Source of the DNA: Eledone cirrhosa
Taxonomy: Eukaryota
Length of the DNA: 64,000 nt
Assembly: GCA_964016885.1 (NCBI GenBank)
Contig: OZ024751.1
Coordinates: 10,292,001-10,356,000, forward strand
Reading direction: 5' to 3'
A program made the translations under genes and the position numbers. The notes under the pieces are model-generated. The model had not been told where the DNA came from, made no database searches, and saw only the letters and a program-made list of their open reading frames with translations. Below are positions 18,517-64,000 of the stretch, piece after piece (position 1 is the first letter of the stretch; each line of letters starts with the position of its first letter).

Positions 18517-18828
18517 TTGTTATACTTTGGTAGGGTCATGCTGCCAATAAAACACATGCACCTGTCGGTTTTCACTTCAATTTATTATAAATTTCCAGTT
18601 GGTTGGTTTAATAACCAGATGGTTGTTTATTTATTGTCAAAGCTCTTTCATCAAGATGGTGTAAGTCAGAACAAAGGAAAGACATAAAATAACAAATTAG
18701 TCACTGAGGATGTCACAGAATGTGTGGCAAAAGAGCTTTGACAATAAATAAACAACCATCCAGTTATTAAACCAACCAAGGTGCGCATGTTTTTATTGGC
18801 AACATGACCCTCCCAAAGTATAACAATA
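18517..18828. mobile_element. Fold-back PLE-terminus-derived element with hammerhead motif
   Basis: Inverted arms end in gaccctcccaaagtataacaat, like the PLE end. Plus-strand motif at 18700-18742: GTCA-CTGAGGA-T-GTCACA-GAATG-TGTGGC-AAAAG-AG-CTT-TGAC. The other arm retains GAAAG. Confidence 0.75.
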
Positions 18829-19149
18829 TCTGTTTCAACACACATCTTCAGATAAGGAATCTTGCAAAACAAATACAAAAACGAAATAAAATTAAATAGT
18901 TTCCTCTATCTTTTTCCTACACATATATATAGGTACCTGTGCATGCGCTGATGTATGGGAGTATGTGGTTATGTATATATGTATACATATACACTCCACC
19001 CATGTCCTAAAATGTCACCCTTCACCCATATTCTTACACCCCCACCTTAGACTTACCTTTTCAAACCCCACATTTTTAGACATGCACTGCCCCCACTCCA
19101 GCCTCCAATCCACACACTAAAGTGGTTGTGTTGGTGACATGTCAAAAAG

Positions 19150-19410
19150 TGCCCAGTCCACACTGTAAAGTGGTTGTATAGGTGTCACAATAAAAAGCAT
19201 CCAGTCCACACTGTAAAGTGGTTGTATAGGTGTCACAATAAAAAGAACCCAGTCCACTCTGTAAAGTGGTTGTATAGGTGTCACAATAAAAAGAACCCAG
19301 TCCACTCTGTAAAGTGGTTGTATAGGTGTCACAATAAAAAGCACCCAGTCCACACTGTAAAGTGGTTGTATAGGTGTCACAATAAAAAGCACCCAGTCCA
19401 CACTGTAAAT
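19150..19410. repeat. 48-bp tandem repeat derived from the SINE-B interior
   Basis: ccagtccacactgtaaagtggttgtataggtgtcacaataaaaagcac, about 5 copies. Confidence 0.9.
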
Positions 19411-19672
19411 GGGGTTGTAATTAGGAAGGGCATCCAGCCATAGAAACCAAGCCAGACACAGATCTGTATGAGAGTGAGAAAGAGATATAGAGGAAGAATT
19501 GATCCCAGTACTTGACTGGTACGTTTTTTATCAACCTAAAATGGATGAAAGGCAAAGTTGACCTCAGCGGGATTTGAATTCAGAGAGCAAACAACCAAAG
19601 CAAATACTGCAAAGCATTGTATTCAACATTCTAATGACTCTACCAATTTGCCATCTTAGCTATACCTATACC

Positions 19673-20733
19673 TTCTTCTTCACCTTCTTATTCCATAGAG
19701 GATCGTACGGGCAGAATCCTCAAACACTACTTCCAGCGGGTCCTATCAGGAGCAACCGTCTCCAACTGATCTGGCTGGATCCCCAAGCATGACCAGCTAA
19801 AGCCAAGCTAATGGATGTTATCTAACCATCTTACTTGGGGTCTACCCTTGGGTCTCTTGCCGGTCCCCAAGCATGACCAGCTAAAGCCAAGCTAATGGAT
19901 GTTATCTAACCATCTTACTTGGGGTCTACCCTTGGGTCTCTTGATGGTCCCCACACATGACCAGCTAAAGCCAAGCTCATGGATGTTATCTAACCATCTT
20001 ACTCGGGGGTCTACCCATGGGTCTCTTGCCGGTCCCCAAACATGACCAGCTAAAGCCAAGCTAATGGATGTTATCTAACCATCTTACTCGGGGGTCTACC
20101 CATGGGTCTCTTGCCGGTCCCCAAGCATGACCAGCTAAAGCCAAGCTAATGGATGTTATCTAACCATCTTACTTGGGGTCTACCCTTGGGTCTCTTGATG
20201 GTCCCCACGCATGACCAGCTAAAGCCAAGCTAATGGATGTTACCTAACCATCTTACTCGGGGTCTACTCATGGGTCTCTTGCCGGTCCCCAAGCATGACC
20301 AGCTAAAGCCAAGCTAATGGATGTTATCTAACCATCTTACTCGGGGGTCTATCCATGGGTCTCTTGACGGTCCCCACACATGACCAGCTAAAGCCAAGCT
20401 AATGGATGTTATCTAACCATCTTACTTGGGGTCTACCCTTGGGTCTCTTGATGGTCCCCACGCATGACCAGCTAAAGCCAAGCTAATGGATGTTACCTAA
20501 CCTTCTTACTCGGGGGTCTACCCATGGGTCTCTTGCCGGTCCCCAAGCATGACCAGCTAAAGCCAAGCTCATGGATGTTATCTAACCATGTTACTCGGGG
20601 GTCTACCCATGGGTCTCTTGCCGGTTGGTTTTGCCTGTAAAATATGTCCAGCGATTCTTTCCTGAGACATTCTAACAACATGTCCGTAGTATCAGAGCTG
20701 TGATCTCTCAATTTGGAAAAGTAGTAGCGGCTC
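19673..20733 (-). mobile_element. RTE-like 3' fragment with an internal 84-85-bp unit amplified about 10 times
   Basis: Unit ccccaagcatgaccagctaaagccaagctaatggatgttatctaaccatcttactcggggtctacccatgggtctcttgccggt starts at 19781, 19865, 19949 and so on. The flanks match the second RTE family. Confidence 0.88.
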
Positions 20734-21059
20734 TATAATCAAAATATCTAACTCTTCCCAACACCAGCCATTTAAATATATTTATATTTCTGCTCTACCT
20801 CTGCCATCCACACTACCATGGACTCTGTCAGAATGTTCTAGACATACATATATACAATACTCTCCTTAGCAATAACTAAGTTAATATCCATCACGTCATC
20901 AATGCTTTCTAATTTTCCACGGTTTATGAACACCAATGAACACGATAAAAAAACTGTTATGGTGTCCAATGTCTCTTCATTTATCTCTACAACCATTATT
21001 GTAATGAACACTGTGTGCCAAAATGTGTATATATATATATATATATATGAATGTGTATG

Positions 21060-21152
<93 letters not shown>

Positions 21153-21211
21153 ATATATAAATATATGAATGTGTATGTATATATATATATATATATAAAT
21201 ATATGAATGTG

Positions 21212-21249
<38 letters not shown>

Positions 21250-21311
21250 TATGAATGTGTATGTATATATATATATGTCTATATATATGTATATATATAT
21301 ATATGTCTATA

Positions 21312-21345
<34 letters not shown>

Positions 21346-21441
21346 TATGTATATATATATATGAATGTGTATGTATATGTATGTGTATGTATATATATAT
21401 ATATATATATGAATGTGTATGTATATGTATGTGTATGTATG

Positions 21442-21481
<40 letters not shown>

Positions 21482-23257
21482 GAAAAGATTCAGTACCTCG
21501 ACGGCTGAGCTCTGGCCGTTTCGACATATATGTATATGCATACATATGTATGGATGTATGTATATATATATATATATGTATATATATTATATACATATAT
21601 ATATATATACACACATACACACACTATATATATATATATGCTAGTGTGGAAGATGGATGTTAAACGATGATGATGATATATACATATATATGTATGCATA
21701 TACATATATGTATACATATTTCAGTAAATATATATATACACACACACACACCCTAAATATATTGTGTACATATATGTATGTATTCATCATCATCATCATC
21801 ATCTTCGTTTAACGTCCATTTTCCACGCTAGCATGAGTTATGTGTATGCATGTATGTGTGAGTAAATATATTATATATATACACACACGTATACATCATT
21901 CTCTGAACACGCCTGAATACCAGTCAATAAACCGCCCTCTCTCTCTATCATACCAACAATATCCACTTTAATTTTCAATGGTATAGAAATCTATAGACAT
22001 CTATGAGCATACAAATAAATAATTATTAACAGGACTTCTCTTCCTCTTCCACCATTACTTAACCAATGTCTGCTAAATATAAACTTCGTTTTCCAACTGA
22101 AACTCAAAAATCAATCAATAATTCAGCTTCTTAACTTCATGCCATCAATATTTTCATAACTTTTCAATGATTTATCAACTAAAAAAAAAAAATGTTATGA
22201 TACCCAAATATGTTTCTCGGTGAAAAAAAATGTGTATATGAGATGCATGTATAAATGTGGTGTGTGTATAAATGTTGTGTGTATAAAGGATGTGTGTGTG
22301 TATAAGAGATATGTGTATATGAGATATGTGTATAAGAGATATGTGTATAAAAAATATGTGTATGTGTATAAGTGATATGTGTATATAAAAGATATGTGAG
22401 TGTAAAAGAGATGTGTGTATATTATGTATGTGTAATATTGTGTATGTATAATATTACATATATATAATATTATGTGTGTATATGTGTGTATAAGTTGTGG
22501 ATTTAAGTTGTGTGTATAAGAGTTATGTGTATAAAATATGTGCATATAACTGTGTGTATAATAAGTATATAATAGTATGTGTGTATATATATAATATGTG
22601 TATATAATATGTATGTATAATATTATGTGTATATAAGGTGTGTGTATAAGGTGTGTATATGAAAGTTGTGTGTATAAGAGATATGTCTATAAGAGATGTA
22701 TGTATAAAAGATGTTTATAAGAGATATGTGCATAAAAGATGTGTATAAAATATGTGTGTATACGAGATATGTGTATAAAATTGTGTATAATATTATGTGT
22801 ATAATGTTATGTGTGTATAAAAGATGCCTGGATAATATGTCTATAAAAGAAGTGTATAATATTAGGTATGTATAAAAATATTTTAATAATTTTGATATTT
22901 TGTTTGGACATAAAATGCCTTTAGTTTTTATTTCTACATATCTTACAAAGTTATAAATATTTTTGTTTAGTATTAATCATGAAGACCTGGCATGGTCAAT
23001 AAACCAAATATTGGTTTTAAATTGTGTTTGTGCATATATTTTATATAACATGTATGTGTGTGTACATGCACACACATATATATACACACAAACATACCTC
23101 CATACAAACAAATATATGCATGGAAATACATACCTACACACAAATGCACACACAAGGAGTTTCAAAAGACATTCCCCACCATCAGTTTAAATTCTGCTTC
23201 ACTGCCCATCATGCCAATCAAATATCATATATTAAGTAAATTATATATACATATATA

Positions 23258-23558
23258 TAAATAAAAGATGGCGTAGATATACCATACAACAGGAGGAACA
23301 TAATAGCACCACTGACCATGTTGCAGATGTGCAACGAAAGGACTTTGTTAGACTATATATATGTGTTTATATCTATCTATATTATATCTGTATTTTTGAC
23401 CGTTGGTCAGTCAATGGTAAACATTGAGGACCGAATTAATTAACTGTGGAGATATAAAAGATACAGAAGCGAAAACCAACCAAACACAGTGAGTGTGTTC
23501 TGTTATTATTTCTGGCAATATCATTACAACAATATAACCCTCCCCAAGTATAACAATA
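23258..23558 (+). mobile_element. Solo PLE terminal-repeat copy
   Basis: Colinear with 58708-59006 (atggcgtaga...gttgcagatgtgcaacgaaag...accctccccaagtataacaat). The hammerhead core is mutated to CTGACCA. TA-flanked. Confidence 0.85.
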
Positions 23559-23674
23559 TATATATATACATATATATATATATACTGTAGTAAAATGTTG
23601 GTAGAAATATCCAAGAGTAAGGGCTCTCAGTCCATAGGATGAGTAAAGTATAGTTAGTTACAACAGTAACATAT

Positions 23675-23724
23675 ACAGGTACTTAAGTTTCGTTGGGTTT
23701 TGCACCCCAAATCATTCAGCCTGT
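23675..23724 (-). ncRNA. Type I hammerhead motif (variant core CUGAAUGA)
   Basis: ACAGG-CTGAATGA-TTTGGG-GTGCAAAA-CCCAAC-GAAAC-TTAA-GTA-CCTGT. Stem I is ACAGG/CCTGT, stem III is the palindrome ACTTAAGT, cleavage triplet GUA. Confidence 0.72.
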
Positions 23725-23762
23725 TATAAAAACAACCACCGGAGGACATTTTTGTTTTTATA

Positions 23763-23812
23763 ACAGACTGAATGAGTTGGGGTGCAAATCCCAATGAAAC
23801 TTAGGTACCTGT
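23763..23812 (+). ncRNA. Type I hammerhead motif (variant core CUGAAUGA)
   Basis: ACAGA-CTGAATGA-GTTGGG-GTGCAAAT-CCCAAT-GAAAC-TTAG-GTA-CCTGT. Confidence 0.65.
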
Positions 23813-23835
23813 ATATGTCACTGTTGTAACTAACT

Positions 23836-23878
<43 letters not shown>

Positions 23879-23896
23879 AGTGTGAGAGTGTGTGTG

Positions 23897-23928
<32 letters not shown>

Positions 23929-24377
23929 CGCGTGCGCGTGCGCGTGTGCGTGTGTGTGTGTGTATATATATATTATATACATACATATATATATATATAG
24001 CAGCAGCAGTATTTAGCGTCCACCTCGTTTTTGGACAGAACGGAACTCCTGTTGATGAATTGAATCCTCTGTTTGATCATGGAATACCACAAGCGTGCCA
24101 GTTACGTAAGTCTGATATTTGATTTCGGATTCATAGAAACACTTTAAACGTATAACGTTTAATTTGTCCAGGTGTATCTTTTTTTAACCTGTTAGTTTTT
24201 TCGTTACTTTGGTATTGTGTGTTAGGTTTTGCTTACCACAATGTTCAATTTGTCAAGCTATTTAAACGGATGTTATTACTCTAAGGACCTACCCTTATTG
24301 AGTGCTTTGCTAACTCATTCATATTGTAGGTCGACTTTGCTTGGCCACAGCCAAAGCTTCGATTTTACTAAGCTTCC

Positions 24378-24410
<33 letters not shown>

Positions 24411-24427
24411 GCATAATATATATATTA

Positions 24428-24585
24428 CCAACAACCCAGGATTCTACATACATCTGTACCAAGTGCAGCAAAGACTGTCACTTACGCATCAGTCTGCAGT
24501 CACAGCAGATGATTCCAAAGACTAGCCATAACTCCAGACACATTAAACATGGTCTGCCAAGACTGAGCTGCCACTGAATGAATGA
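24428..24585 (+). mobile_element. RTE-type LINE extreme 3' end
   Basis: TYICTKCSKDCHLRISLQS resembles the RTE C-terminal zinc finger. (TGAA)n tail. Confidence 0.6.
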
Positions 24586-24867
24586 TATATTATATATATA
24601 TATATATTATATATATATATTATATTATATGTATATATCATACATATATATTATAACCATCATGTCAGCTTGGGAGAGAGGAGAGCTTAGTGGGAGGGCT
24701 GTGTAAGGGTGGTGCCAAACCCAATACAGATATTTCCCTGCAGCTACTATGACCAGATCTGCCAATCTCAGATGGGTCACATCAGTCACTAGCATACATA
24801 AATAGAAGGAAAAAGGGACCTGACTTTTAGGTATCTTTGTATCAAAGTCATCACCATTATCATATAT

Positions 24868-25938
24868 CATCATCATCATCATTTTACGTCCGCTTTTCCA
24901 TGCTTGCAAGGGTGGGACGGGTCTTATTCAGCACAGCATCTCTCCACTCGTCACGGTCCCTCGTCATCTCCACCGTGAGCTTCAATGATCTGAGGTCTGT
25001 TCTCACCACCTCCGCCCATGTTTTTCGTGGTCTACCTCTACCACGTCTTCCTTCAACTGGCAATTCCTGGCACTTCTTCACCCATCGGTCTTCCTCCATG
25101 CGCATCACATGTCCATACCACCTCAGTCTCCTCTCCCGTACACTACATTCTATCCATCTCAGAGACAGTTTCTCTCTCAACGCATATAAGCTGGGTCGTT
25201 CATGCACATTTACACTGCACATCCAACGGAGCATGCTTACCTCATTTCTCTCCAGCCGTCGCATGTCCTCTGCAGTTACTGCCCATGTCTCACTACCATG
25301 CAGCATCGCGCTCCTCACACAGGCATCATACAACCGGCCTTTCATACGCAGGGAGAAACCCTTCTTCGCCAACAGAGGAAGCAGCTCCCTAAACTTCTTC
25401 CAACCCGTCCTTATTCTAGATACTATGGCCTCGGAACACCCTCCTCCCATGCTAATCTGATCTCCTAGGTACCGGAAGCTATCCACCACTTCTATAGCGC
25501 CCTCCTGCATTTGAAAAATGTGTCTATCAATGCGACTTCTACTGTCTAATTTCCCTGTACATCTACTGCATACATATTTCTCCCTACCTGTTAGTTTGCC
25601 TGCTATCCCGCTACATCTCTTGTGTACCCAGGATCTGCATTGTGTGCATTTTATAGAATTTATGCCAGTTCCTTTTCTGCATATCGAACATGGCCATTTC
25701 CCTGACGGAATCAGGGTTTTGTCCTCTTTTCTACTCAACACTTTTGTCTTAGTTAGATTCACTCTCAGTCCTCTTGCTTCCAACTGCTGTTTCCATAGCC
25801 AGAATTTATTCTCTAGCTCCTCTACTGATTCTGCTATAAGAACCAGATCGTCAGCATAGAGAAGTTCCCATGGACAGCCAGTCTTAAACTCCTCTGTTAT
25901 GGCTTGGAGGACTATAATGAACAAGAGCGGGCTGAGGA
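24868..25938 (-). mobile_element. RTE-clade LINE, 5'-truncated (RT C-terminal half with Cys/His finger)
   Basis: LSPLLFIIV...LLYADDLVLIA...GLRVNLTKTK...FRYLG...RLRWYGHVMRM...RGRGRPRKTW, ending in a (GAT)n tail. Confidence 0.93.
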
Positions 25939-26079
25939 CCGTTAGACGAACAGCCATTAAAAAAAAATAATAAACATAAAAATAAGATCCCGGCACTTCA
26001 GGCGTTGTTACCTTTACAGATGCAATGGAAAAAAACACATCACTGTAACTTCCAGCACATCACATATTTATTATATATA

Positions 26080-26508
26080 GTGAAGGCGCATGGCTTAGTG
26101 GTTAGAGCATTGGGCTTGCAATCGAAAGGTTGTGAGTTCAATTCTCAGACCGGGTGATGTGTCGTTTCCTTGAGCAAGACACTTTATTTCAAATTGCTCC
26201 AGTTTACTCAGCTGTAGGAATGAGATGATAGGACTGGGGTCCACATCATTCCACTGCAAAGTGGTCGTGGAGGTGCCACGGCAGAAAAAGCACCCAGCCC
26301 ACACTGTAAAGTGGACGTGTAGGCGCCATGGAAAAAAAAAAAGCAGCCAGTACTCACTGTAAATGAAGTTGGTGTTAGGAAGGGCATCCAACTGTATAAA
26401 TCAAGCCAGAATCAGTTCCCGTATGAGCAAGACAAGGTAAACCAACAGGGCAACCCATCTAACCCATGCTAGCATGGAAGAATGGATGTAAAACGGAGAT
26501 GATGATGA
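26080..26508 (+). mobile_element. tRNA-derived SINE family B (CORE-like) with an RTE-type (GAT)n tail
   Basis: gtgaaggcgcatggcttagtggttagagc...gtgagttcaattc...ccttgagcaagacacttt...ttggtgttaggaagggcatcc...aacccatgctagcatgg...gatgatgat. Confidence 0.88.
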
Positions 26509-26932
26509 TATATCTTCTTTTGACCTGCAACTCCTGGGGGATTTGCAGGAGCAGCATGTTGACATATGGCATTTCTAAACCTGGCAGAGCCCATCCCCTC
26601 TCCAGGTCTGAACACAACAGATTTCTTCCAGAGAAGGATAGAAAGTGAGAAAGAGATATAGAGGAAGAATCAACCCCAGGACTAAACTGGTATTGGTACT
26701 TTTTTATTGACCTTAAATGGATGAAAGGCAAAGTTGACCTCGGCTGGATTTGAAAGAGAACAAAGAGTCAGAACAAATATTGCAAAGCATTCTAACCGAT
26801 GTTCTAATGACTCACACCTTAGCTATACATATACCTATAGTCAAAATATTTAACTCTTAACAACACTAGCCATCTAAATATATTTCTATTTCCGCTCTAC
26901 CTCTGCCAATTCACCGCCAATAAATATTATAG

Positions 26933-28420: not shown

Positions 28421-28679
28421 CTTTCAGCAATGGCTACAACTGAAATATAAACCAAAACCAAACCAAAATTATAACTTGTACTTCTACAAAATAACAACTA
28501 CTATCATAGGAGCTCCAGCATGGTCTATTTTCACCTGCTAGACAAACAAATCTCCCCCAAACCACACTTTATCTTCCTGAAAAAAATGGTAAGAATCACA
28601 TTGGATAATATGTTACTAAATACTCTTAAACAGACAAATGATCCTTGCTGGAATTCGTTAGATTATATAGGTTTTCTCA

Positions 28680-40638: not shown

Positions 40639-40675
<37 letters not shown>

Positions 40676-40795
40676 TTCGAATGAAACAGTTCTAGTCCCG
40701 TAGAAGCAATTTCTATATTAAATATTTATACTCTGCTATATATTGAGTACCTTACTTACAGTGGTTACCCCAGATTGAACCCATTATACACACAC

Positions 40796-40842
<47 letters not shown>

Positions 40843-40884
40843 CTTCAAAATATTAATAAATAGACATTCATGTGATCAGATATA

Positions 40885-40946
40885 TTTTATTATACATATT
40901 TCAGAGGTACTGAGCTATTTCAACAGTACGTCCTCATCAGATAAAA
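40885..40946 (-). ncRNA. Type I hammerhead ribozyme motif (mirror copy)
   Basis: Reverse complement reads TTTTAT-CTGATGA-GGACGTACTG-TTGAAATAGCT-CAGTACCTCT-GAAAT-ATGT-ATA-ATAAAA. Confidence 0.8.
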
Positions 40947-41050
40947 TAAGTTGATGCTTGACATACCTTGACTATGTTGATGGTTATAATTTACTGCCAT
41001 GGCAGAATTATAACCATCAACATAGTCAAGGTATGTCAAGCATCAATTTA

Positions 41051-41112
41051 TTTTATCTGATGAGGACGTACTGTTAAAATAGCTCAGTACTTCTGAAATA
41101 TGTATAATAAAA
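41051..41112 (+). ncRNA. Type I hammerhead ribozyme motif
   Basis: TTTTAT-CTGATGA-GGACGTACTG-loop-CAGTACTTCT-GAAAT-ATGT-ATA-ATAAAA. Canonical core, 6-bp stem I, 9/10-bp stem II, cleavage triplet AUA. Confidence 0.8.
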
Positions 41113-41483
41113 TATATCTGATCACATGAATGTCTATATTTATTACTATTTTGAAGTAATATTAATAACTGAAAAAAACCCTCTATGGAGTGCTTCTAAT
41201 CTATTGTGAAACTTTATTCTTTGATTTATTCATTGAACCTTGTTTAACCTTTAATCATATATATATATATATATATATATATAGCATCGTGTCATCCAAC
41301 AGATGAACTGAAGATATTTAGAATCAATACGTCACTTTTACCAACATGAATACTGAATACACATACTGTTTTTCACACACAGCAATTGTGTAAGAATGTA
41401 TGTATACACATTATATATATACACACACACCACCCGCCTCAGTAAACCACGAATCTAATGAACCACCTAATATTATATATCCC

Positions 41484-42343
41484 GGCAGTATCGGTAGAGG
41501 GTCGGACGCCATGCTTTGCAGCAAAGAGTTACGGCCCTTTATGATCTGAGTTCAAATCCCGCCGAGGTTAACTTTGCCTTTCATCCTTATTAGGTCCATA
41601 AAATAAAGTACCAGTAATGCCCTGATATAATTGCTGGCCTTGTGCCAAAAGTAGAAACAATTATATATCCCATTCATTTTCAAACTTTTATCACCACTCG
41701 GAGGAGAAGGAATGCTATATATATATATATCAAATCCCGCCGAGGTTAACTTTGCCTTTCATCCTTATGGGGTCGATAAAATAAAGTACCAGTAATACAC
41801 TGAGTATTTGCTGGCCTTGTGCCAAAAAAGTAGAAATAATTATATTATATTATCCGCGCGTTTCACAGAGCGGATTATCAACCCGCTCGCTGAAATGCGC
41901 GTCCTCGAATATGGTTTGGTAATTTGTTGTGGAACTAACTCTATACAGATTTCGTCCTCTGAACTGTGTGCTCTATTTACTACGGATATAAACTACCGGC
42001 TTTTTACCATAATGAAAAAGAGTGAAAAACGGGACAAAACATCAACAAGCAGGACAGTAGAGAAAGAGATGATATAAATAAATTTTTTTTTTTTTTAAAC
42101 TGCGGAACGTGACAAACTATATAATAACTGTTTCTTATATAGACACAAGGCCAGCAATTTTAGGGGAGGGAAAAGTCGATTAAATCTACCCCAGTGCGTG
42201 ACTGGTACTTTATTTTATCGACCCGTAAGGATGAAAGGCAAAGTTAACCTCGGCGGGATTTGAACTCAGATCATAAAGGACCGTAACTCTATGCGTCAAA
42301 GCATGGCGTCCGGCCCTCAACCAATACTGCCAATCCACTGCCC
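41484..42343. mobile_element. SINE family A copies (41484-41662 +, 41730-41838 +, 42128-42343 -)
   Basis: Same A/B boxes and core as 7443-8072. Confidence 0.85.
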
Positions 42344-42708
42344 TTGGACAAACTATATAATAACGTCACATTTTGGTCTTCAACTAACTCCACTTTCTAA
42401 ACTAACAGTTTTTTAACTAAGGAAGGATACTGATTTGGCACGTAGAGAAGTAGATATGATAGTAGTAGTAGGTTGAAAAAACCATAATAAAAGCCGATAA
42501 AATAAAGTACCAGTAATACACTATGAGTTAGGAAGGACTGTCCGGGTAGTTTATATAGAGAGAATGGTTTTCCGAAAAGGAACGAGTGGGAACTACATAT
42601 TATTAAATAAAGTACTAATACATTAGTAGAGAAGGTACATATTTATTACATATATAAATATATAAGTGACTTCTACGGGACTAGAATTGTTTCATTCGTT
42701 TGAAAATC

Positions 42709-48160: not shown

Positions 48161-48238
<78 letters not shown>

Positions 48239-48369
48239 CAAAGGGATATTTAATTTGTTGGTAATTCAACAAATATATTTATAACAGATTCGAAGCATTC
48301 AACAAGTTTTCTGGAGTATAATATCAATGATATTAATAAATGGAAACTATATTTATAAAACCATATTTA

Positions 48370-48426
48370 TTCTATTATATATATTTCAGGGGTACCAAAA
48401 CTTTGGTATGCTCTCATCAGATAAAA
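48370..48426 (-). ncRNA. Type I hammerhead ribozyme motif
   Basis: TTTTAT-CTGATGA-GAGCATACCAAAGTTTTGGTACCCCT-GAAAT-ATAT-ATA-ATAGAA. Stem III region is the palindrome ATATATAT. Confidence 0.7.
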
Positions 48427-48769
48427 TACAAAGTTTGTTTTATAAATATTGACATATGAGACCTTAACAGTTCAAGTTTCACCTGGATAGTCATATATAT
48501 ATATATATATATATATAGGGAGTTGTATATATATATATATATATATATATACCGTCCAAACCCATGCAAGCGTGGAACATGGACGTTAAACGATGATGAT
48601 GATGATGATGATGATGATGATATATACAACTCCCTATACTACATATGTGAGAATGAATAATAAATATTTTATTGTTCAGGTGTTGTGTCAGTGAAACAGT
48701 CTCTACTTGGTTGCTCGACCTGGTAAAAATAGTAGTTACCAAGTCACTCCATGTCTTAACCAAAGAAAG

Positions 48770-53479: not shown

Positions 53480-53535
<56 letters not shown>

Positions 53536-53544
53536 ATATGTATG

Positions 53545-53575
<31 letters not shown>

Positions 53576-54130
53576 ATATATATATATATATATAGCAAAG
53601 GAAAAGTGGTAAGGAACCAGGTGGACCATAACGCACCAAAGTACTCAATACTTAGGGTAGTAGAGTGGGTAATAGGAGTAAGCAAGACCCCGACGGCTGT
53701 ATAAAGAGGTGCAGGGTACTCAAATTTGACAGAAACTATGGAAGAGGAAGACCTAGGAGAGATTGGAATGAAGTAATAAAGGATCGAGATTTCAGGTGTT
53801 ATATTTTTAACTGTTGGTCAATCAATGATAAACAAAAAAGCACCCAGCTCACACTGTAAAGTGGTTGTGTAGGTGTCACGGCAAAAAGCACCCAGTCCAC
53901 ACTAAAAAGTGGTCATGTAGGTGTCACGACAAAAAGCACCCAGTACTCACTGTAATTGAAGTTGGTGTTAGGAAGGGCATCCAGCTGTAGAAACCAAGCC
54001 AAAATCAGTTCTGTATGAGCAAGAAATGGTCACCTGACCTAGCATTGCTCACAACAGGACAACTCGTTTAACCCATGCTACTGCGGAAAAGTGAATGTAA
54101 AAAAGTGATGATGAAGATGATGATGAATAT

Positions 54131-54312
54131 ACTGAAGTGAAAACCAAACCAAACAGTGAGTGTGTTTTACTATATTTTGGCAATAGTAGGACAACATGAC
54201 CCTCCCCAATATATAACAATATCCTGAAGTGAAAACCAAACCAAACAATGAGTGTGTTTTACTATTTTTTGGTAATATTAGGACAACATGACGTTCCCCA
54301 ATATATAACAAC
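54131..54312 (+). mobile_element. Two tandem copies of the PLE extreme 3' terminus
   Basis: About 92-bp unit ctgaagtgaaaaccaaaccaaacagtgagtgtgtt...atgaccctccccaatatataacaa, twice, similar to 58911-59006. Confidence 0.75.
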
Positions 54313-55077
54313 ATACATAATGTTTTGGTTACTATTTTTAGCATGTTGTGTAAACATGTAAAATCCCATCCATTAGCTCAAAGTATTTATTGGCATCACA
54401 GTTCTGTAATCTATCATTTCATGATAGTAACTCATAGTTCCGTAATCTTTGATCTCTTGATGATTTCTTCCTCCATATATAAGAGAGTGGTCTTATCTAA
54501 TTATACATCATGATCTCTATATCTATATTCCCAACATTTACTGTGACATGCCACATGCTTCACTCATATAACTGCTATGAGCTATATTTCATATCTCTAT
54601 TAATCATTCAAGTTGACAAGCTGAGGCCATGCTGGGGCACCGCTATTCTATATATGAGGAATCTTTTTTTTTTTGCTTTGTTTTCAACAGTAAACAAATA
54701 CTGGATATATTCTTGAATATAAGTCAAGAAATATGTGACCAGAAAATTTATGGTAAAATGGTAGGGTTGACATATTCGAGATCAATATTTTGACGATTTT
54801 CAACAACCTCAAAATTCTACATAAATGAAGTTTGGATTTTTGCCCATTTCTCAGGCATAAAATAGTGGGGTTGGCTTATATTCGAGTATATATATATATA
54901 TATATAAATTTTAGTACAGCATTGACGAAGCTTTAGAATACGGCCAAGCTAGCGTATATGCATAATCGGTCTGTAGCTTGAGCACTCAGATGAGGAACGA
55001 CCCTAGAGTACTAACATTACGTTCAGACAGCTTAGCAAATCAGATATAGTGGTCGGCAGTCCAGCCGCATCACTAGA

Positions 55078-55125
<48 letters not shown>

Positions 55126-55668
55126 GTTTGTATATGTACAATAAAGCCAAAACAATGCAGGCATGGACATAGAATAAAGAATGCAAATGCAAAAGATATT
55201 GTTGACAATTAGTCTTTTACCTTAGATTTATTTAAATGTCCTTAATTTTCGAGATAATATCTCTTCTTCAGAGGGAAGTAAAGCGGTTAAACTCTGGTTT
55301 AACCGCTGTTTTTCTTATTCCTTTTTTCTTTTTTCTTTCTTTCCTCCTGTCTTTTTTCTCTATGCATTTCTCTCTCTCTGATATTTCTCCACGTTTTTTC
55401 TTTTTTCTTTTTTCTTTTTTCTTTTTTCTTTTTTCTTTTTTCTTTTTTCTTTTTCCTTTTTCTTTTTTCTTTTTTCTTTTTTCTTTTTTCTTTTTTCTTT
55501 TTTCTTTTTTCTTTTTTCTTTCTCACCGTCTTTTTTTTCTAATTGTCCTTAACACTAAGACTTATTAAAATAATATAAACAATTCACTATCCAGATGGCT
55601 TCCAAAAATAATGGTTGCATTTTAAAAGGGTACGTCAAAGCTTATTTGTAAAACTGTTATATATTGTA

Positions 55669-55729
55669 TTTTGTCTGATGAAGGCATACCATAATTTAAT
55701 TTGGTATCCCTGAAATATGTATAATGAAA
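55669..55729 (+). ncRNA. Type I hammerhead ribozyme motif
   Basis: TTTTGT-CTGATGA-AGGCATACC-loop-GGTATCCCT-GAAAT-ATGT-ATA-ATGAAA. The 3' flank is homologous to 48330-48370 in inverse orientation. Confidence 0.7.
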
Positions 55730-55904
55730 TAAATATGGTTTTATAAATATAGTTTCCATTTATTAATATCGTATATATATATATATATATATATATGATG
55801 ATGTTGATGATGATATGTATTCATTTATATTAAGGCTAAAAAATGAGTCTTGTTACTCTGAAGTTTCACTGTTTATCACAAAACTCCAGAGTAACAAGAC
55901 AACG

Positions 55905-56245
55905 CCAACGTGGTTTCATGTGGTACAGGATGCTATGACTTAAGGACTTAAGAACAAATCTAATGTGGTTTCATATGGTACAGGATGTTATGAGTTAAAG
56001 AACAAACTTAATGTGGTTTCATGTGGAACAGGATATTATGAGTTAAAGAACAAACTTAATGTGGTTTCATGTGGTACAGGATCTTATGAGTTAAAGAAGA
56101 AACTTAATGTGGTTTCATGTGGAACAGGATGTTATGAGTTAAAGACAAATCTAATGTGATTTCATGTCGTACAGGATGTTATGAGTTAAAGGCAACCCTA
56201 ATGTGGCTTCATGTGGAACAGGATGTTATGAGTTAAGGACAAACT
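55905..56245. repeat. 48-bp tandem repeat
   Basis: taatgtggtttcatgtggtacaggatgttatgagttaaagaacaaact, about 7 copies. Confidence 0.92.
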
Positions 56246-56574
56246 AGAATTTTAAGTGGAGGGTTACAACATTCTCTCTGTTGTGAATGAAGAAAAAATG
56301 TTTTACGTATTTTATTTTATTTTATTTTATTGAAAAAGGGTAGAAATATGTTTATTGTTTTTGGGTGAAATATTTTACCTTTTAAATTATATCAGTGGAT
56401 TTAACTGATTTATTTATTTGTTTTGATTTGTTTCATTTCTTTAATTGAATTTATTTCGGTAATTCAGCGCCATTTCTTGTGGCAGGTAGTCATACCAACT
56501 TACTGACTTCATATAACCTGAACAATAAACAAAGGAAAATATAGAACAAAAAAAAATGTTATAAAATCTGTAAA

Positions 56575-57150
56575 AAATATGACGTCATAAAGTCTACAAT
56601 AATACATTGTTGTAAATTCTACATTGGTATGATGTTATAAAGTTGACAATAATATGAGATCATAAAGTCTACATTGTTATGATGCCATAACGCCTACATT
56701 GGTATGATGTCATAGTCTAAATAGTTTGTTGTCATAAATTTTATAATAATATTATAATATAATTTTACATCATATTGGTATGACATCATAAAGTCTACAT
56801 TGGTATGATATCATAAAGTCTACAAAAATATGACATCATAAAGTCTATATTGGTATGATGTCATAAAATTTGTAATAATATGACATCATAAAGTTTACAA
56901 TAATATGACGTCATAAAATATACATTGGTATGATGCAATAAATTCTACATCACTACTATGACATCATAATGTTTACATTGTCCTGATGTCATAAAGTCTA
57001 CAAAAATATGACGTCATGATGTCTACATTGGTATGATGTCATAAAGTCTACATTGGTATGATGTCATAAGGTCTACAATAATATGTCATAATCTCTACAT
57101 TACTATGATGTTTACATTGGTATTATGTCTTAAAGTCTACAGTGGTAGAC
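56575..57150. repeat. 25-bp tandem repeat
   Basis: tgatgtcataaagtctacattggta and tgacatcataaagtctacaaaaata variants. Confidence 0.9.
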
Positions 57151-57533
57151 TTTAAGACTTAATTGTTTCTACTTTTGGCACAAGGCCAGCAATTACCCAG
57201 TACATTACTGGTACTTTATTTTATCGACCCCGTAAGGATGAAAGGCAAAGTTAACCTCGGAGGGATTTGAACTCAGATCATAAAGGGACGTAACTCTATG
57301 CTTCAAAGCATGGTGTCTGACTCTCTACCGATACTGCCAAAGACATAATACCAATTAGATATGTTTTTTTTAACTTCACCTGCATTGTTAATGAGAACAG
57401 CATGAACATCACAAATTCACTGTTCTGTCCTCTCCTCCTCTCTCAACATATAATTATAATATCTCACTTTCCCGCTCTCACTCCTCACTCTCTTTCTCTC
57501 ATATATATACATCATTGTCATTTTATATATGTG

Positions 57534-57620
<87 letters not shown>

Positions 57621-57685
57621 TGTTATACTTGGGGAGGGTCATATTTGTGTAATATTGCCAGAATTAATAACAGAACACACTCACT

Positions 57686-58509
57686 GTGAAGAATGTGTCC
57701 CGCATGTGCGACCCAACAGAAATGGAAAGACACATCCAACACTTCATCAACCGCATGCAGTTCTCTGGCTACAACCAAAGAGATAGAGTCAGAGTATATG
57801 AAGGAGCCATGGAGAAGTATAAGACCCTCATAGAACTGGACATGAAAGGAATTTGCCCATTGTACAGGAACAAATCATGGAATAGCTTAGATAGGGCTAG
57901 ACATAAGATAGGGAAAGCCACCTCATGGTACGACAACCAGAGATACCAGAGTGTCATGTTTGTGGACGCTACCCCTGGAGGGAAATTAGCTAACCAGTGT
58001 AGAAAGGCCCTGAGAAAGACCCACTTAAAAATTAAGGTGGTAGAAAAGCCAGGAACCACCATAAAATCCCTGATCAGCAAAACCTACCCTTTTAAGAAAA
58101 CCCACTGTACTAATAGGAAATGTATCATATGTAAGGTAAACCCCCGGATAAACTGTAAAACTAGAAACGTAGTCTATAGCATAAGATGTACAGAGGGTAC
58201 TTGCAAAAACATGACAACAACATACATAGGTGAGACAGCTCGTAGCATAGATGAAAGGATAGACCAACACCGGGGGAACTAAAAGGATGAAAAAATGGGT
58301 CAGTACTATACGAACATGCCAGACAACAACATGACGGTAACATAGACAACATAGAAATTAGAATAATATCTAAACATAGAAATGACCCAGCAGATAGGCA
58401 AATCAGAGAGGCCAGTGAAATAGAACTTAGAAGGCCAAGACTAAACAGAAAGAATGAATGGAATAATAAAAACACCCAAACAAACAACACTGACCTAAGA
58501 GAAGTATAA
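57686..58509 (+). pseudogene. PLE polyprotein C-terminal remnant (thumb/linker, Cys-rich region, GIY-YIG endonuclease)
   Basis: CKTRNVVYSIRC...YIGETARSIDERIDQH, then a stop and frameshift near 58270-58295, then SVLYEHARQQH...RQIREASEIELRRPRLNRKNEW. The RT core is absent. Confidence 0.88.
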
Positions 58510-58755
58510 ATAAGTAAATAAATAGATAAATAAATAAATAAATACATACACAAGCACAATAACAACAAACACATATAAACACACACTAGTCAGCCAATCA
58601 CGAAAACACATCAAACAAAACACTATACACACATGCAAACGCATGCGCAAAGAAGACAAAATAAAATAAACAAATAAGCAAATAAATAAATAAATATATA
58701 GACAGACTAAATAAAAATGGCGTAGACATACAATGCAACGGGAGGAAACAATAGC

Positions 58756-58797
58756 ACCACTGACGATGTTGCAGATGTGCAACGAAAGATTTATGAT
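58756..58797 (+). ncRNA. Minimal type I hammerhead ribozyme motif in the PLE terminal repeat
   Basis: CA-CTGACGA-T-GTTGCA-GATG-TGCAAC-GAAAG-AT-TTA-TG. Intact core boxes and a 6-bp stem II. Stems I and III are weak. Confidence 0.6.
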
Positions 58798-59046
58798 AAA
58801 CTATATATATGTGTTTGTGTCTATATTGTATCTGTATTATTTTTGACCGTCGGTCAGTCAATGGCAACATTGAGGACCGAATAAATTAGATTACCGATAT
58901 AAAAGACACAGAAGTGAAAAGCGAAAACCAACCAAACAGTGAGTGTGTTCTGTTATTAATTCTGGCAATATTACACAAATATGACCCTCCCCAAGTATAA
59001 CAATATTTGTTTCGACACACGATTTCATATAAAAAACCTCGCAAAA

Positions 59047-59122
<76 letters not shown>

Positions 59123-59123
59123 C

Positions 59124-59220
<97 letters not shown>

Positions 59221-59222
59221 CA

Positions 59223-59298
<76 letters not shown>

Positions 59299-59544
59299 TA
59301 TATCATCATCATCATCATCAGGTTTAGCGTCCGTGTTCCATGCTTGCATGGGTTTGGACGAGGGTTTACCCACTTGAGGCAAGAGTGGTTGTCTTGCTCG
59401 CATAGGACTATCTGGCGGGTTTTCTACAGCTGGATGCCCTTCCTAACACCAACCACATTTACAGTGTGGGGCTGGGAGGTTTTTACCGTGTTGCCTACAG
59501 GGCCACATTACAGCGTGGACTGTCTATATATATATATATATATA

Positions 59545-59888
59545 TGGAGGTACATGGCTTAGTGGTTAGAGCATTGGCCCTGCAATCGAAAGGTTGTGAA
59601 TTCAATTCTCAGACCGGGTGATGTGTTGTTTCCTTGAGCAAGACACTTTATTTCACATTGCTCCAGTTTACTCAGCTGTAGAAATGAGATGATAGGGACT
59701 GGGGTCCATATCATTCCACTGTAAAATGGTCGTGGAGGTGCCACGGCAAAAAAGCACCCAGCACTCACTGTAAATGAGGTTGGTGTTAGGAAGGGCATCC
59801 AGCTGTAGAAATCAAGCCAGAATCAGTTCCCGTCCCACCCTTGCAAGCAGGGAAAAGCGGACGTAAAATGAAATGATGATGATGATGA
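59545..59888 (+). mobile_element. SINE family B copy; others at 36312-36605(-), 46624-46842(+), 49425-49765(+), 53165-53427(-)
   Basis: Same head and core. This copy's 3' end (cgtcccacccttgcaagcagggaaaagcggacgtaaaatg) matches the 3' end of the RTE at 12550-12600. Confidence 0.88.
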
Positions 59889-59919
59889 TATATATATATA
59901 TATATGTGTGTATATATAT

Positions 59920-59951
<32 letters not shown>

Positions 59952-60390
59952 CAACTAGAAATTGATTGACATCCATATATTTAAAATAAACACATGAAAC
60001 AATCGCAGGGAATAATTTGTAAAGTGTGTAATCATACATAGCTAGGTAGGTAACTAATTAAAGTTTAACTAGAGCTTCAAAAATGTTACCTTTTTAAAAA
60101 ATGATTAATCCTCCTTGTATATATTTCATTAAAGAAACATATTTCACCGTTAATCCGTAAAGTCACAGTAGTTAAATCTCGGATCTTCAACAAGGGGGAA
60201 GATTTAACGATCTGTGCTTACACATCAAATGCAAATCTGCGAGTGAGCCATCGCACGTGTTGCATTTCTAAAACTACTAACATGCTAGCATCACCACATT
60301 GGCATGAATAGGGTGATCGAGAGCTATAAATAGCAGCCGGGTCCTTTCAACTGAATAAGCTCTACAATTAAGGAGCTGTTTATATATCTA

Positions 60391-60635
60391 AAATTAATTA
60401 AATTAAATTAAATTAAGGGAGTCATGTCTGAGACATGCACCATATCCACCGTAGATTAAGCTTAAAGATTCCAATGAATAGATCCGAGCATTTTATATCA
60501 ACTAGAAATTGATTGACATATATATATTTAAAATAAACACATATAAAATGCTCGGATCTATTCATTGGAATCTTTGAGCTTATTCTATGGTGGATATGGC
60601 GCATGTCTCGGACATGACTCCCTTAATTTAATTTA

Positions 60636-60643
<8 letters not shown>
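60391..60643. repeat. Long inverted repeat (~105-bp arms)
   Basis: aattaagggagtcatgtc...gatccgagcattttata / tataaaatgctcggatc...gacatgactcccttaatt. The spacer duplicates 59949-59993. Confidence 0.8.
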
Positions 60644-60696
<53 letters not shown>

Positions 60697-60769
60697 CTGG
60701 TGGTAGCTAAGATGCTTCCATAAGTGGTATGCTGGTTGAGCACTCTATGCTCTTACAGAGCAGAGTGTG

Positions 60770-60923
60770 ATATAATATAAAACGAAAAATCAGTGATGCA
60801 TCTGAACTCAATTTATTGTGTGTTACAATTGTTTCGCTGGCGGACAGCTCGAGACACGATCATTGTGTGGATCTGTCTGATTCTGGATCTGCAGGTTCAC
60901 CGATTTTTCGTTTTATATTATAT
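60770..60923 (-). mobile_element. Small inverted-terminus element with a degenerate hammerhead
   Basis: 27-bp inverted ends (atataatataaaacgaaaaatcagtga / tcaccgatttttcgttttatattatat). Minus strand 60820-60857 reads GTGT-CT--CGA-GCTG-TCCGC-CAGC-GAAAC-AATT-GTA-ACAC. Confidence 0.65.
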
Positions 60924-60987
60924 ATGTATATATATACTCTTTTACCCTTTTACCTGTTTCAGCCATCCGGCTGAGGCCATGCTGGGG

Positions 60988-61040
<53 letters not shown>

Positions 61041-61227
61041 TCCAGTTCATTTTCATTGGCACAGGTTGAACAACTTGGTTCTCTGGACTAACAAAACGTA
61101 CATGCATGGTATGGCGCCATTGTAGTAATTGGCTTTAATAATTATATATATATATATAATATTATAGAGTAAAATAACAGGTTGAATTCCATCCAAAATA
61201 TTTGAAGGAATTCAATCTGTCCGGCCT

Positions 61228-61810
61228 CCTGTCATTTTACTCTCCCTATCTTGCTCAGAACATTGACCGCCTGGAAACTGTTCAGAGACGTGCAACCAAG
61301 CGAATACCCTCCATCAGGCATCTACCATACTCTGAGCACCTTGCTTCCCTGGGCATGGATACATTGAAGCTCCGACGCCTGGCAACTGACTTGGTAAACA
61401 CCCACAAAATTGTTAACCATCTTGCCAACAACAACCCTGAGTACCTTTTTGATTTCCATGTGTCTAACACACGTGGACATGCCCACAAAGTAAGAAAACA
61501 GCACAGTTCCCATGACTTTCGGAAACATTTTTTCACGCTCAGAGTTGCTGAAGCATGGAACAAACTACCTGCATCAGTTGTTAGCTGTCGAGACACTGCA
61601 TCCTTTAAGGCCTCCATGCTTCCCGAGATCCGCCAACACTACAGCTAATGTTCCCCCTCCATACACATACACACATGTATACCATGACTCATACACTATT
61701 CACTTCCCTAACATTTGTGTATTATTCTATGTACTATACATACACCTTTGACGAGTTGTAGTGCACCTGAGCACTTTACACAATAATTTCATTATTATTA
61801 TTATTATTAT
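61228..61810 (+). mobile_element. CR1-clade LINE 3' fragment; 3' UTR piece also at ~2755-2972
   Basis: SPYLAQNIDRLETVQRRATKRIP...LRRLATDL...NTRGH...RKHFFTLRVAEAWNKLP, with an (ATT)n tail. Confidence 0.88.
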
Positions 61811-61932
61811 AATATAATAGGATTCAACATTAAAGAGGAATGAGATGTGTAATGTTGAGTGCTTTCCTACTGGTACATCATGATTAACATTGCAGAATGA
61901 CCAATTCTACCCAGTGGTGAATACCCAATTTA

Positions 61933-61979
<47 letters not shown>

Positions 61980-64000
61980 GTGTGTATGTGTAACACAGGG
62001 TCAATCGGGGGTACACAGTAAGTAAGGTACTAAATACATAGCAGAACATAAATTTTTAATATAGAAATGGCTTCTACAGGACTAGAACTGTTTCATTGAA
62101 GGAAATCATCAGAAAAGCTGACTGTCAATGTGATATGGTGGTATGTATATATTTTCTGTTGGTTGGGGAAGGTGGTGATTGGGTGCAGGTCATTGGCTGA
62201 TGGATTTAAAGAATGGAGATTCTTTGAAAACTATATTTAGAGAAAAATACATAGTGATACAGAATGAAACAAATGCAGGCACTCTTAATTTTCAAAGTTC
62301 ATTTATTCTACAGGGCATGTCAATACAGCCACTTAATGAAAACCCTTTGCTTGCTTAGAATTTACTCAAACACGCACATGCACATACACTCACAGCGTAG
62401 CTTTTTCATCCTCCCCTTCCTTAGTATGAGGTAGTCAAACTACTTCTCTCTCTTTACGTGTTGTGACAGAATCGCAGAAATTTATATATAGATTAACTGG
62501 CCCTGTGCCATCAAAAATGATAGCTAATTGTAATATCTATCCATAATATAAAAAAGAGATGTTTGTTTGTTTGTTGGTTGATTGGCTCCTTCACACTCAC
62601 ACACACAAGTGATACAAACATACAAACACACTACTGTGACGAATTTTAGAATACTGGACTTCTATAGTATTTCACCCTCTTCCATCCTCAGTCATCACAC
62701 TCACACAAATATTATAGATAAATATAATTTATACAAACACACATATACACACACACACACATAAACACTCATATAATAACAGCCAATGTATGTAGCCAAT
62801 TTGCTACACATATATACACACAGACGGTGCTTTCTGTAGTTTGTCCTCACCCTTTCCTTCCTCAGTCATCTCTAGTGCATGACGGACAAATACACATTGG
62901 CTTTTATTATACCATGCTTTGCAGCATGGTATAATAACCCTTTACGGTCTGAGTTCAACTCCCGCTGAGATTAACTTTGCCTTTCATCCCTTTGGGGTCG
63001 ATAAAATAGAGTACCAGTAATGCCCTGAGATATTTCCTGGCCTGGGTGACATACTGTCAAGTGTTTCGTCTCTTTTGTGTCTGGTGATTACAAGTTTGTT
63101 CATCAAGTTGTTTGTTTTGTTGATTGGGAAATATTCAGAATAATTAGATGAAGATTTATTTACATAACAGTTGTTGATTGAACACTGTAATTATTGTCAA
63201 ATGTCTGCTACAGGAGAATATATAATAATTAACTATGTTCTCTGTTAATTACTGAATACAATTACTCTATTAAAATTCAGATGGTTTAATCACATATATA
63301 TGTGTGTGTGTGTGTATGTCTGTATGTCTGTGAGTGTATATTTTAGTAAGTGTGTCTGTGTTTGCACGTTTATATTTATATACTCATACATATAAATGTA
63401 TACATATGCACATACACTCATGCACACACATATACACATATGCGTCAGCGTGTTGAAAAGAAAATTCTAGTTATCAAAAACACATGTAATCACCAGATAT
63501 CAGACCTGCCAACCTCTAAAAACACTAACGGGTGGGGGATACCATGAAAAAAGTGCCTCAAAACAGGGAGAAATGAGACAAAATAGGGAAGATTTTAATG
63601 AAAGATATACCCATTTTCACAAAAGAAGACATCTCTCACCCACCCCAAAGTGGGTGGAAGATATCCCTATTGGATAGAGAGAGTTGACAGGTCTGAAACA
63701 TGAAAGAAAAGTATGTCAAGCAGTGCCCCCCCCCCCCCCAACAGATCTAACTATAATAAACACCATACCATAAGCAACATTAACCCTTTAGCGTTTACAT
63801 TACTCTATATATACTATTGTATTTTTGCGTTAAAGTCTTTATCTCACATAATTATCTCACATAATATCGAATCTATGAGATTTTTGATTTTACTTATTTT
63901 GAGAACAATACCTTAACATCACTATGAGTGGTCAGTTACAGTGGGTTTGAACAGAAAGTGGTGAGAGAATTCTGGTTGGATATGGCCAGTTTAAATGCTA

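Follow-up and report, generated by a model that had tools for sequence, protein, structure and literature searches.

What are the small inverted repeats with hammerhead ribozyme motifs that are scattered along 64,000 nucleotides of the genome of the octopus Eledone cirrhosa? This stretch (assembly GCA_964016885.1, contig OZ024751.1, positions 10,292,001 to 10,356,000 of the forward strand; hereafter the window, with positions counted from its first letter) was read in the original prediction, made from the sequence alone, as part of a genome that hosts diverse RNA elements, non-autonomous and retrozyme-like, which are mobilised by the enzymes of Penelope-like elements (PLEs). We found 11 type I hammerhead motifs in nine short insertions, which fall into five sequence groups (A to E). 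Our data indicate that these motifs are probably the 5'-truncated ends (pseudo-long terminal repeats, pLTRs) of several endonuclease-bearing PLE families, most copies being predicted to be inert. The anatomy, the truncation, the coding end and the target bias are all shown here.

Hammerhead motifs in the window

All eight motifs of the original prediction, and a ninth with a deletion in its core, were located where it had placed them, and all nine sites are type I. Two further motifs were found, at 23312 and 55271. The motifs had been called near-complete; the core is unaltered in only six of the 11, and the remaining five carry G12A, G8C, a 2-nt deletion or, in two cases, an 8-nt core. Group A consists of 40940 and 41057, the two arms of one insertion (40883-40948, minus strand, and 41049-41114, plus strand; A1), together with 48420 (48368-48428, minus strand; A2) and 55675 (55667-55731, plus strand; A2). 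The core is intact in all four, and stem II of 48420 has decayed, with three mismatches. Group B, entirely on the plus strand, consists of 58760 (58758-58795; B1), with an intact core and 2 bp of stem I beside it, 23312 (23310-23347; B1), with G8C, and 18704 (18700-18742; B2), where AAAA replaces GAAA and G12 is lost (G12A). The two arms of another insertion, 23719 (23675-23724, minus strand) and 23768 (23763-23812, plus strand), make up group C, and both have the 8-nt core CUGAAUGA. Group D is 60853 (60820-60857, minus strand), with two core nucleotides deleted and a palindromic stem III, and group E is 55271 (55240-55274, minus strand), a minimal form with an intact core. The expectation of several distinct families agrees with these five groups. 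The expectation that their stems would be unrelated held only in part: the four group A motifs are 70-82% identical, 18704, 23312 and 58760 form one group, and 23719/23768 and 40940/41057 are pairs of arms.

As had been predicted, the stem III sequences of groups A, C and D can pair with themselves (self-duplex -2.2 to -6.6 kcal/mol), which matches the expectation for dimer-type hammerheads; those of groups B and E do so weakly. The proposed association with (TA)n was also borne out, since a (TA)6 or longer tract lies within 300 nt of eight of the nine insertions, compared with 27% of the window (p=2e-4).

A descriptor requiring an intact core and paired stems gave five matches in the window against a mean of 0.07 (maximum 1) in 200 dinucleotide shuffles in 500-nt blocks, the comparison that the original prediction had named as able to refute it. 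Allowing the 8-nt core gave seven matches against 0.08 (200 shuffles), and an earlier, stricter descriptor gave three against 0.017 (60 shuffles); the descriptor thresholds were chosen after the motifs had been seen, and 48420, with its three stem II mismatches, lies below them. With one free core change the descriptor gave 20 matches against 9.3 (15 shuffles), and the additional "partial" motifs of the original prediction are therefore weak evidence. Searches of the window for rearranged hammerheads, with three paired stems and the core blocks in another order, gave none above chance (SGC 0, CSG 0, GCS 1 against 0.55 in 40 shuffles). The "partial" site at 62112 (61983-62130, minus strand) was rejected as a hammerhead; it retains CUGAUGA and GAAAC...GUC, and its stems I and II do not pair. 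Pieces related to this stretch lie at 40675-40796 (plus strand) and 42647-42698 (minus strand). The resulting three-copy repeat shares a conserved GAAAC...CTAGTC block beside (TA)n, and the core words are present in one copy.

In group A, 74 of the 76 cells are paired, and four of the 19 pairs, all in stem II, are changed on both sides between A1 and A2. In 500 shuffles, neither the paired share nor the covariation score was ever reached, but 150 of them had as many doubly changed pairs. The comparison covers four sequences from three insertions, with the structure drawn from those same sequences, and the covariation therefore argues for selection on the fold without proving it. Below E=0.3, a covariance model built from group A recovered only the four copies on which it was trained, and it did not recover groups B to E; it scored the hammerhead of a related metagenome locus (L002, see below) at E=0.93. 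The model therefore gives no support across families.

These results confirm the 11 motifs as genuine type I hammerhead-type RNA motifs. Since G12 is the general base of the hammerhead (PMC6155905) and G8C abolishes cleavage (PMC11167929), the copies 18704 and 23312 are predicted, by analogy, to be dead. Most hammerhead copies in the window are likewise predicted to be inert.

Group B and its coding Penelope-like element

The element that links the hammerheads to PLEs lies at 57617-59049 on the plus strand, between two (TA)n tracts. It is a 5'-truncated PLE of group B1 and consists, in this order, of an inverted copy of the pLTR end, an open reading frame (ORF) remnant, a spacer of low complexity, the hammerhead, the pLTR end and, found only at the right, a tail of 43 nt. 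The inverted end (57617-57687, minus strand) is 71 nt long, is 100% complementary to 58936-59006 and has no tail. The C-terminal ORF remnant (57688-58498, plus strand; frameshift near 58280) encodes a CX4CX2C linker finger and a GIY-YIG endonuclease, and ends in a typical endonuclease C-terminus. The GIY-YIG domain was matched by PF01541 at E=0.003, with a score under the curated cut-off, and has the two cysteines between GIY and YIG by which this endonuclease is recognised. In the linker, C140, C145 and C148 are invariant in all five aligned proteins. The best protein match of the remnant is a reverse transcriptase (RT) protein of Octopus vulgaris (59% identity, E=3e-74), and the four full or near-full matches are RT and/or GIY-YIG proteins. 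The RT core is missing from this copy, and the closest proteins carry RT and the DKSG motif. This copy is 5'-truncated, since 52,728 restriction-site-associated DNA (RAD) reads and 45 contigs extend upstream of 57687 with sequence that looks like further ORF. A few single-locus joints in the reads show strand inversions at other breakpoints. The B1 family is multi-copy, as 12,023 contigs of one run match this stretch; read depth on it is not usable as a copy number. The sequencing runs listed as holding matches included no RNA run, which is uninformative about expression. An ORF remnant, a hammerhead and an inverted terminal copy thus occur together in one insertion, as expected from the proposed link to PLEs.

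The hammerhead of this element (58758-58795) has an extra U after A9, a 6-bp stem II and a stem III of A-U and G.U, and its predicted cut is after 58793. At 58791 about 80% of the RAD reads carry C, so that the G.U pair in stem III becomes G-C; both remaining group B copies also have G-C there. The ORF start, an ATG with the first 23 codons (58981-59049, plus strand), spans both the pLTR end at 59006 and the one-sided tail. Three further group B features, all on the plus strand, lack an ORF body. A solo B1 pLTR at 23233-23559 is 82% identical to 58687-59006 and contains the G8C hammerhead. The B2 stub at 18516-18880 has an inverted arm (18516-18648), a direct pLTR with the hammerhead, an ATG at 18804 and a one-sided tail. 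At 54126-54316, two pLTR ends of 92 nt stand in tandem and have no hammerhead. In the B2 stub, the inverted arm begins (18649) at an intact hammerhead GAAA and keeps the G that is lost from the direct copy (18730), and about 36 nt are missing from the direct arm.

The ATGs at 58981 and 18804 each give a 24-aa peptide. Seven of the 12 base differences between the two fall on third codon positions, with four synonymous and six non-synonymous codons. In Smith-Waterman alignments tested by shuffling, the 58981 peptide aligned with the ORF start of the related metagenome PLE L001 with a score of 40, which one of 5000 shuffles equalled; the other three peptide-PLE pairings were weaker (8, 30 and 133 of 5000 shuffles as high). 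BLASTP of the 24-aa ORF start against L002 gave no alignment, and a similar ORF-start motif was judged by eye to be present in four of 17 longer relatives. Two of six related metagenome loci, L001 and L002, hold the whole endonuclease end with downstream DNA, and in both a minimal hammerhead follows the stop codon and precedes the next ATG, intact in L002 and with one core change in L001. L003 to L006 were left out because their 3' region was absent or their matches were weak (L006 gave one loose match). From this placement and the geometry of the ORF start, group B reads as the end of a coding PLE; its assignment to the Neptune/Nematis type rests on the linker motif, the window containing no RT of this element. 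The copies at 18704 and 23312 are ORF-less stubs of the same coding group. Positions 1-3441 of the metagenome contig L002, with a 123-nt terminal overlap, represent a whole 3,318-nt PLE unit with RT, endonuclease, a hammerhead at 3237, an ATG at 3310 and one frameshift near 2690. In L006 (4637-5517), a weak PLE match is followed downstream by a 36-nt direct repeat in four copies, separated by 70, 695 and 80 nt.

The anatomy of the group B insertion has close parallels. In PLEs described in 2013, the pLTR covers the first 12 codons, or 22 with the tail, and an inverted pLTR lies at the 5' end (Arkhipova 2013, PMC3846280); the corresponding numbers here are 9 and 23 codons. Truncation, an inverted copy, a tail and a bias to microsatellites are general features of endonuclease-bearing PLEs, and a CX2-5CxxC linker is a feature of Neptune/Nematis (Craig 2021, PMC8557442). 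The window shares with the insertions in these two papers the 5' truncation, the inverted truncated 5' copy, the tail at one end, the microsatellite target, the palindromes at the inversion junction and the linker. It differs in that most of its copies are reduced to the pLTR alone, and in the tails of groups A, C and D, which are 60-90 nt long compared with 30-40 nt (PMC3846280, PMC8557442).

Fold-backs of the other groups and their origin

An inverted end with a one-sided extension, the ends pointing outward, was found in five insertions (18516, 23647, 40834, 57617 and 60770). By group, the same footprint is seen in A1, C and D, whereas the A2 and E copies show the (TA)n ending only. The A1 fold-back (40834-41256) has arms at 40834-40998 and 41001-41167 that are 97.5% alike and almost spacer-less, with a one-sided tail of about 90 nt that reaches (TA)n. 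The group C fold-back (23586-23839) has arms at 23647-23735 and 23752-23839 (93%), a palindromic stem III and, on the left side, a one-sided extension of about 60 nt to (TA)n. The group D stub (60692-60923, minus strand) has a 31-nt inverted end (60890-60923 against 60770-60800) and a one-sided tail of about 78 nt to (TA)n. One A2 stub (48237-48490, minus strand) lies between (TA)n tracts and has a tail that aligns with the A1 tail; the other (55545-55771, plus strand) ends in (TA)n, as does the group E stub (55123-55400, minus strand). The group E hammerhead has an extra A after A9, a 6-bp stem II closed by G-C, no loop III and a 3-bp stem I. The original prediction had described fold-backs without an ORF. 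Inverted ends are indeed present in five insertions, but 58760 sits in a PLE with a GIY-YIG remnant, and the fold-backs are accounted for by PLE insertions that are 5'-truncated and carry an inverted end.

Several side observations concern these copies. The A1 tail (41168-41256, plus strand) aligns with the A2 tail (48237-48345, minus strand) with a score that one of 2000 shuffles equalled, and one reading frame of each tail ends in ASNLL-stop, the differences between them being synonymous. At its 5' edge (55545-55571, plus strand), the 55675 stub reads VLNTKTY-stop, resembling the LNTK motif that ends PLE endonucleases; this likeness of only seven residues may be due to chance. The 55240-55274 motif lies head-to-head with 55675, about 400 nt away, with a (TTTTTTC)n tract between them. 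A further fold-back at 60381-60653, with arms 95% alike, a 42-nt spacer that recurs at 59952-59993 and a (TA)n end, has no hammerhead, and may mark the terminus of a PLE family that lacks a canonical one.

The two motifs of a fold-back lie on opposite strands and therefore give one sense copy per transcript. In the folded transcript of 40850-41150, the sense hammerhead is buried in a hairpin of -220.6 kcal/mol. Folding thus predicts that the fold-back copies are locked in long hairpins. Because the sense copy is single and buried, the fold-back is an insertion scar and not a ribozyme design.

A number of points weigh against an origin of all five groups as PLE ends. Groups A, C, D and E, which make up six of the nine insertions, have no ORF link in the window, their tails (60-90 nt) contain no recognisable ORF start, and tblastn of 154 PLE proteins matched the window only at 57500-58500. 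Stem I of group A has 8 bp, compared with 4-5 bp in typical PLE minimal hammerheads, and is nearer to canonical retrozyme motifs. Even in group B1, stem I is weak, stem III pairs poorly with itself and the PF01541 score is low. No hammerhead family was among the Rfam matches listed (best 150 of 152, E<=1), those listed being microsatellite-driven miRNA matches only; minimal hammerheads may be outside the scope of the Rfam models. Single motifs folded no better than shuffles (z-scores -1.6 to +0.5), which speaks against the hammerhead assignment itself, and the small, self-derived group A alignment and its doubly changed pairs add to these reservations. Groups A, C, D and E could be of non-autonomous origin.

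A reading along the lines of the original prediction develops this last possibility. Groups A, C, D and E would be retrozyme-like RNAs that cleave themselves, form circles and enter DNA through PLE enzymes, group B alone being a true PLE, and the window would contain monomers or part-monomers of non-coding units. We consider this unlikely, although it accounts for the missing ORF link, for tails longer than usual without a clear ORF start, for the longer stem I of group A and for the clean palindromic stem III of A, C and D. It also agrees with a recent description of retrozymes as PLE derivatives whose monomers are spread evenly across chromosomes (Li et al. 2026, 10.64898/2026.07.22.740005). 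Animal non-LTR retrozymes resemble the window in their type I hammerhead, small non-coding context and proposed dependence on PLEs (Cervera 2020, PMC7229834; 10.64898/2026.07.22.740005), a likeness known here from DNA. However, these papers recognise a retrozyme by at least two consecutive units, each with a hammerhead, and no same-strand tandem of hammerhead units was found in this window; nor does any unit length emerge. None of the 125 tandem-repeat rows of the window contains a hammerhead, same-strand copies of group A are 7.5 and 14.6 kb apart, and in no copy is the tail sequence repeated upstream of the hammerhead, as it would be in a circular unit. The footprint is identical to that of the proven PLE stub, and dispersed single motifs have been attributed to truncated PLEs (Cervera 2014, PMC4209133). 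A non-coding context is what has been found so far for A, C, D and E, but group B, with three of the nine insertions, derives from a coding PLE. What stands of the proposed retrozyme-like set is that the other groups could be non-autonomous.

Could the fold-backs instead be DNA transposons of the miniature inverted-repeat type, whose terminal inverted repeats captured PLE fragments? The perfect 71-nt inverted repeat at 57617-59006, with ATAT on both sides, and the fivefold occurrence of the same terminal 22-mer would fit. The group B arms are unequal, however (71 nt against 133 nt), the supposed terminal repeat is the coding start of a PLE ORF that runs into the tail on one side only, the same end occurs solo (23233) and in tandem (54126), and at the junction other copies continue into ORF. 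A DNA-transposon reading of the 71-nt repeat is largely refuted by these features, and we regard this origin as very improbable. Chance matches in AT-rich, repeat-rich DNA would explain the 9.3 loose matches per shuffled window, the weak folding scores of single motifs and the Rfam result. Against this stand five strict matches where shuffles gave 0.07, the recurrence of the motifs in homologous copies with compensatory changes, and their same position in related PLEs of other organisms. Chance is hardly credible as an explanation of the whole; it is refuted for the 11 counted motifs and tenable for the "partial" site at 62112.

Truncated PLE ends also agree with what was published on minimal hammerheads. 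Thousands of them (2,000-9,000 per genome), in many families, are dispersed in animal genomes, some as pairs 100-700 bp apart on opposite strands, and they were ascribed to truncated elements (Cervera and de la Pena 2014, PMC4209133). The motifs of the window share with these hammerheads of metazoan PLEs the type I order, the many families per genome, the mostly dispersed single copies and the opposite-strand pairs. They also share the palindromic 15.2-16.2/loop III, the long stem II, the short stem I and, in groups B and E, the extra base after A9. By contrast, stem I of group A extends to 8 bp, its 10.1-11.1 pair is G.U or A-U and the extra base is absent, and group C has its extra base inside the core (PMC4209133). 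In group C (23719/23768), CUGAAUGA has one extra base after A6, like the A6a insertion that is a rare hammerhead variant of low activity (Perreault 2011, PMC3088659). Here the 8-nt core is present in both arms and is known from one group C insertion.

Proposed insertion mechanism, density and genomic setting

How might truncated PLE ends come to look like this? On the model of published PLE work, the RT-endonuclease of the element would nick AT-rich DNA, and reverse transcription would begin a little downstream of the hammerhead, inside the ORF start of the unit that follows in a tandem transcript. Most copying would end early, and the end that bears the hammerhead would nearly always be retained. 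Such a start would place a hammerhead in nearly every truncated copy, and this retention would in turn give a high motif density without selection on the copies. The opposite DNA end would receive a second, shorter copy, started about 45-90 nt further in, either because both strands are primed or because the complementary DNA (cDNA) folds back on itself; palindromes with a one-sided tail would result. Of these two routes, cDNA fold-back suits the palindrome at 40999, which has almost no spacer, and the 71-nt arm at 57617 is compatible with both. The hammerhead of the parent element would cleave tandem transcripts slowly, as a stem III dimer or with the element's protein.

The Poseidon element PAc of Anolis offers the nearest biochemical comparison (Frangieh 2024, PMC11167929). 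In vitro, AT-rich DNA is cleaved and both strands are extended, internal RT starts define the tail, and the hammerhead needs protein to cut and is dispensable for insertion. As in the window, its hammerhead lies beside the ORF start, its target is AT-rich and the tail marks two RT start sites. Cleavage and extension of both strands would yield inverted ends that point outward. PAc belongs to another PLE clade, and its ORF starts in stem II, whereas the ATG of B1 lies about 190 nt downstream of the cut site (PMC11167929).

Dispersed PLE hammerheads, including opposite-strand pairs, are of a kind already described in 2014 (PMC4209133), and the insertions of the window are known PLE debris in dense form. 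What remains new is possibly a very high genome-wide count and one 8-nt core variant. Among the papers listed by literature searches on octopus or cephalopod ribozymes, no title or abstract start concerned a cephalopod hammerhead, and supplements may list octopus or 8-nt-core variants. The portion of the main text of Cervera 2014 (PMC4209133) that was covered names no cephalopod, and the part seen of the main text of a 2026 repeat annotation of O. vulgaris (PMC13282606) has zero mentions of ribozymes. The window is therefore a pointer to an octopus hammerhead load that was not found reported in the titles and abstract starts searched.

At the density of the window, with six intact cores in its 64 kb, a genome of 2.3-2.8 Gb would hold about 200,000, but the window was chosen for its motifs. 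This extrapolation is far above the published 2,000-9,000 per genome (PMC4209133). It is possible, if rather doubtful, that octopus genomes hold about 100,000 or more intact hammerheads, part of them in non-coding families (A, C, D) copied by PLE enzymes onto both ends of a DNA cut, with group C retaining the 8-nt core CUGAAUGA as a working form. If so, the count would be far above most published animal counts, and thousands of stubs would reveal, genome-wide, where RT starts at its two sites and how the inversion occurs during PLE insertion. One window already indicates that insertion yields hammerhead "fold-back elements" and a truncated coding element as one and the same kind of product, and its copies are natural substrates for the question of how PLEs make inverted ends and tails. 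The palindromes would yield long double-stranded RNA in any read-through transcript. Octopuses are known for heavy RNA editing, and such RNA could matter in this context.

The surroundings of the insertions are rich in other repeats and poor in GC (37%), and (TA)n is frequent among the tandem-repeat rows. Exons of a host gene with ankyrin and leucine-rich repeats (LRRs), in an LRRK-like layout, lie at 3717-7462 (minus strand), with a 13-nt tandem array at 5984-7082 between them and weak further ankyrin/LRR matches at 14121-14282, 2255-2365 and 479-610; the search made with this gene gave no close full-length relative. RTE-like reverse transcriptase pieces are present, and remnants of long interspersed nuclear elements were found at 24884-26059 (minus strand), 11981-12385 (plus strand) and 61178-61648 (plus strand), the first being an RT piece with an inserted PHD finger. 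A repeat resembling short interspersed nuclear elements, one of many in the window, has two copies in opposite orientation (41484-41684 and 42093-42362) that are 90% alike.

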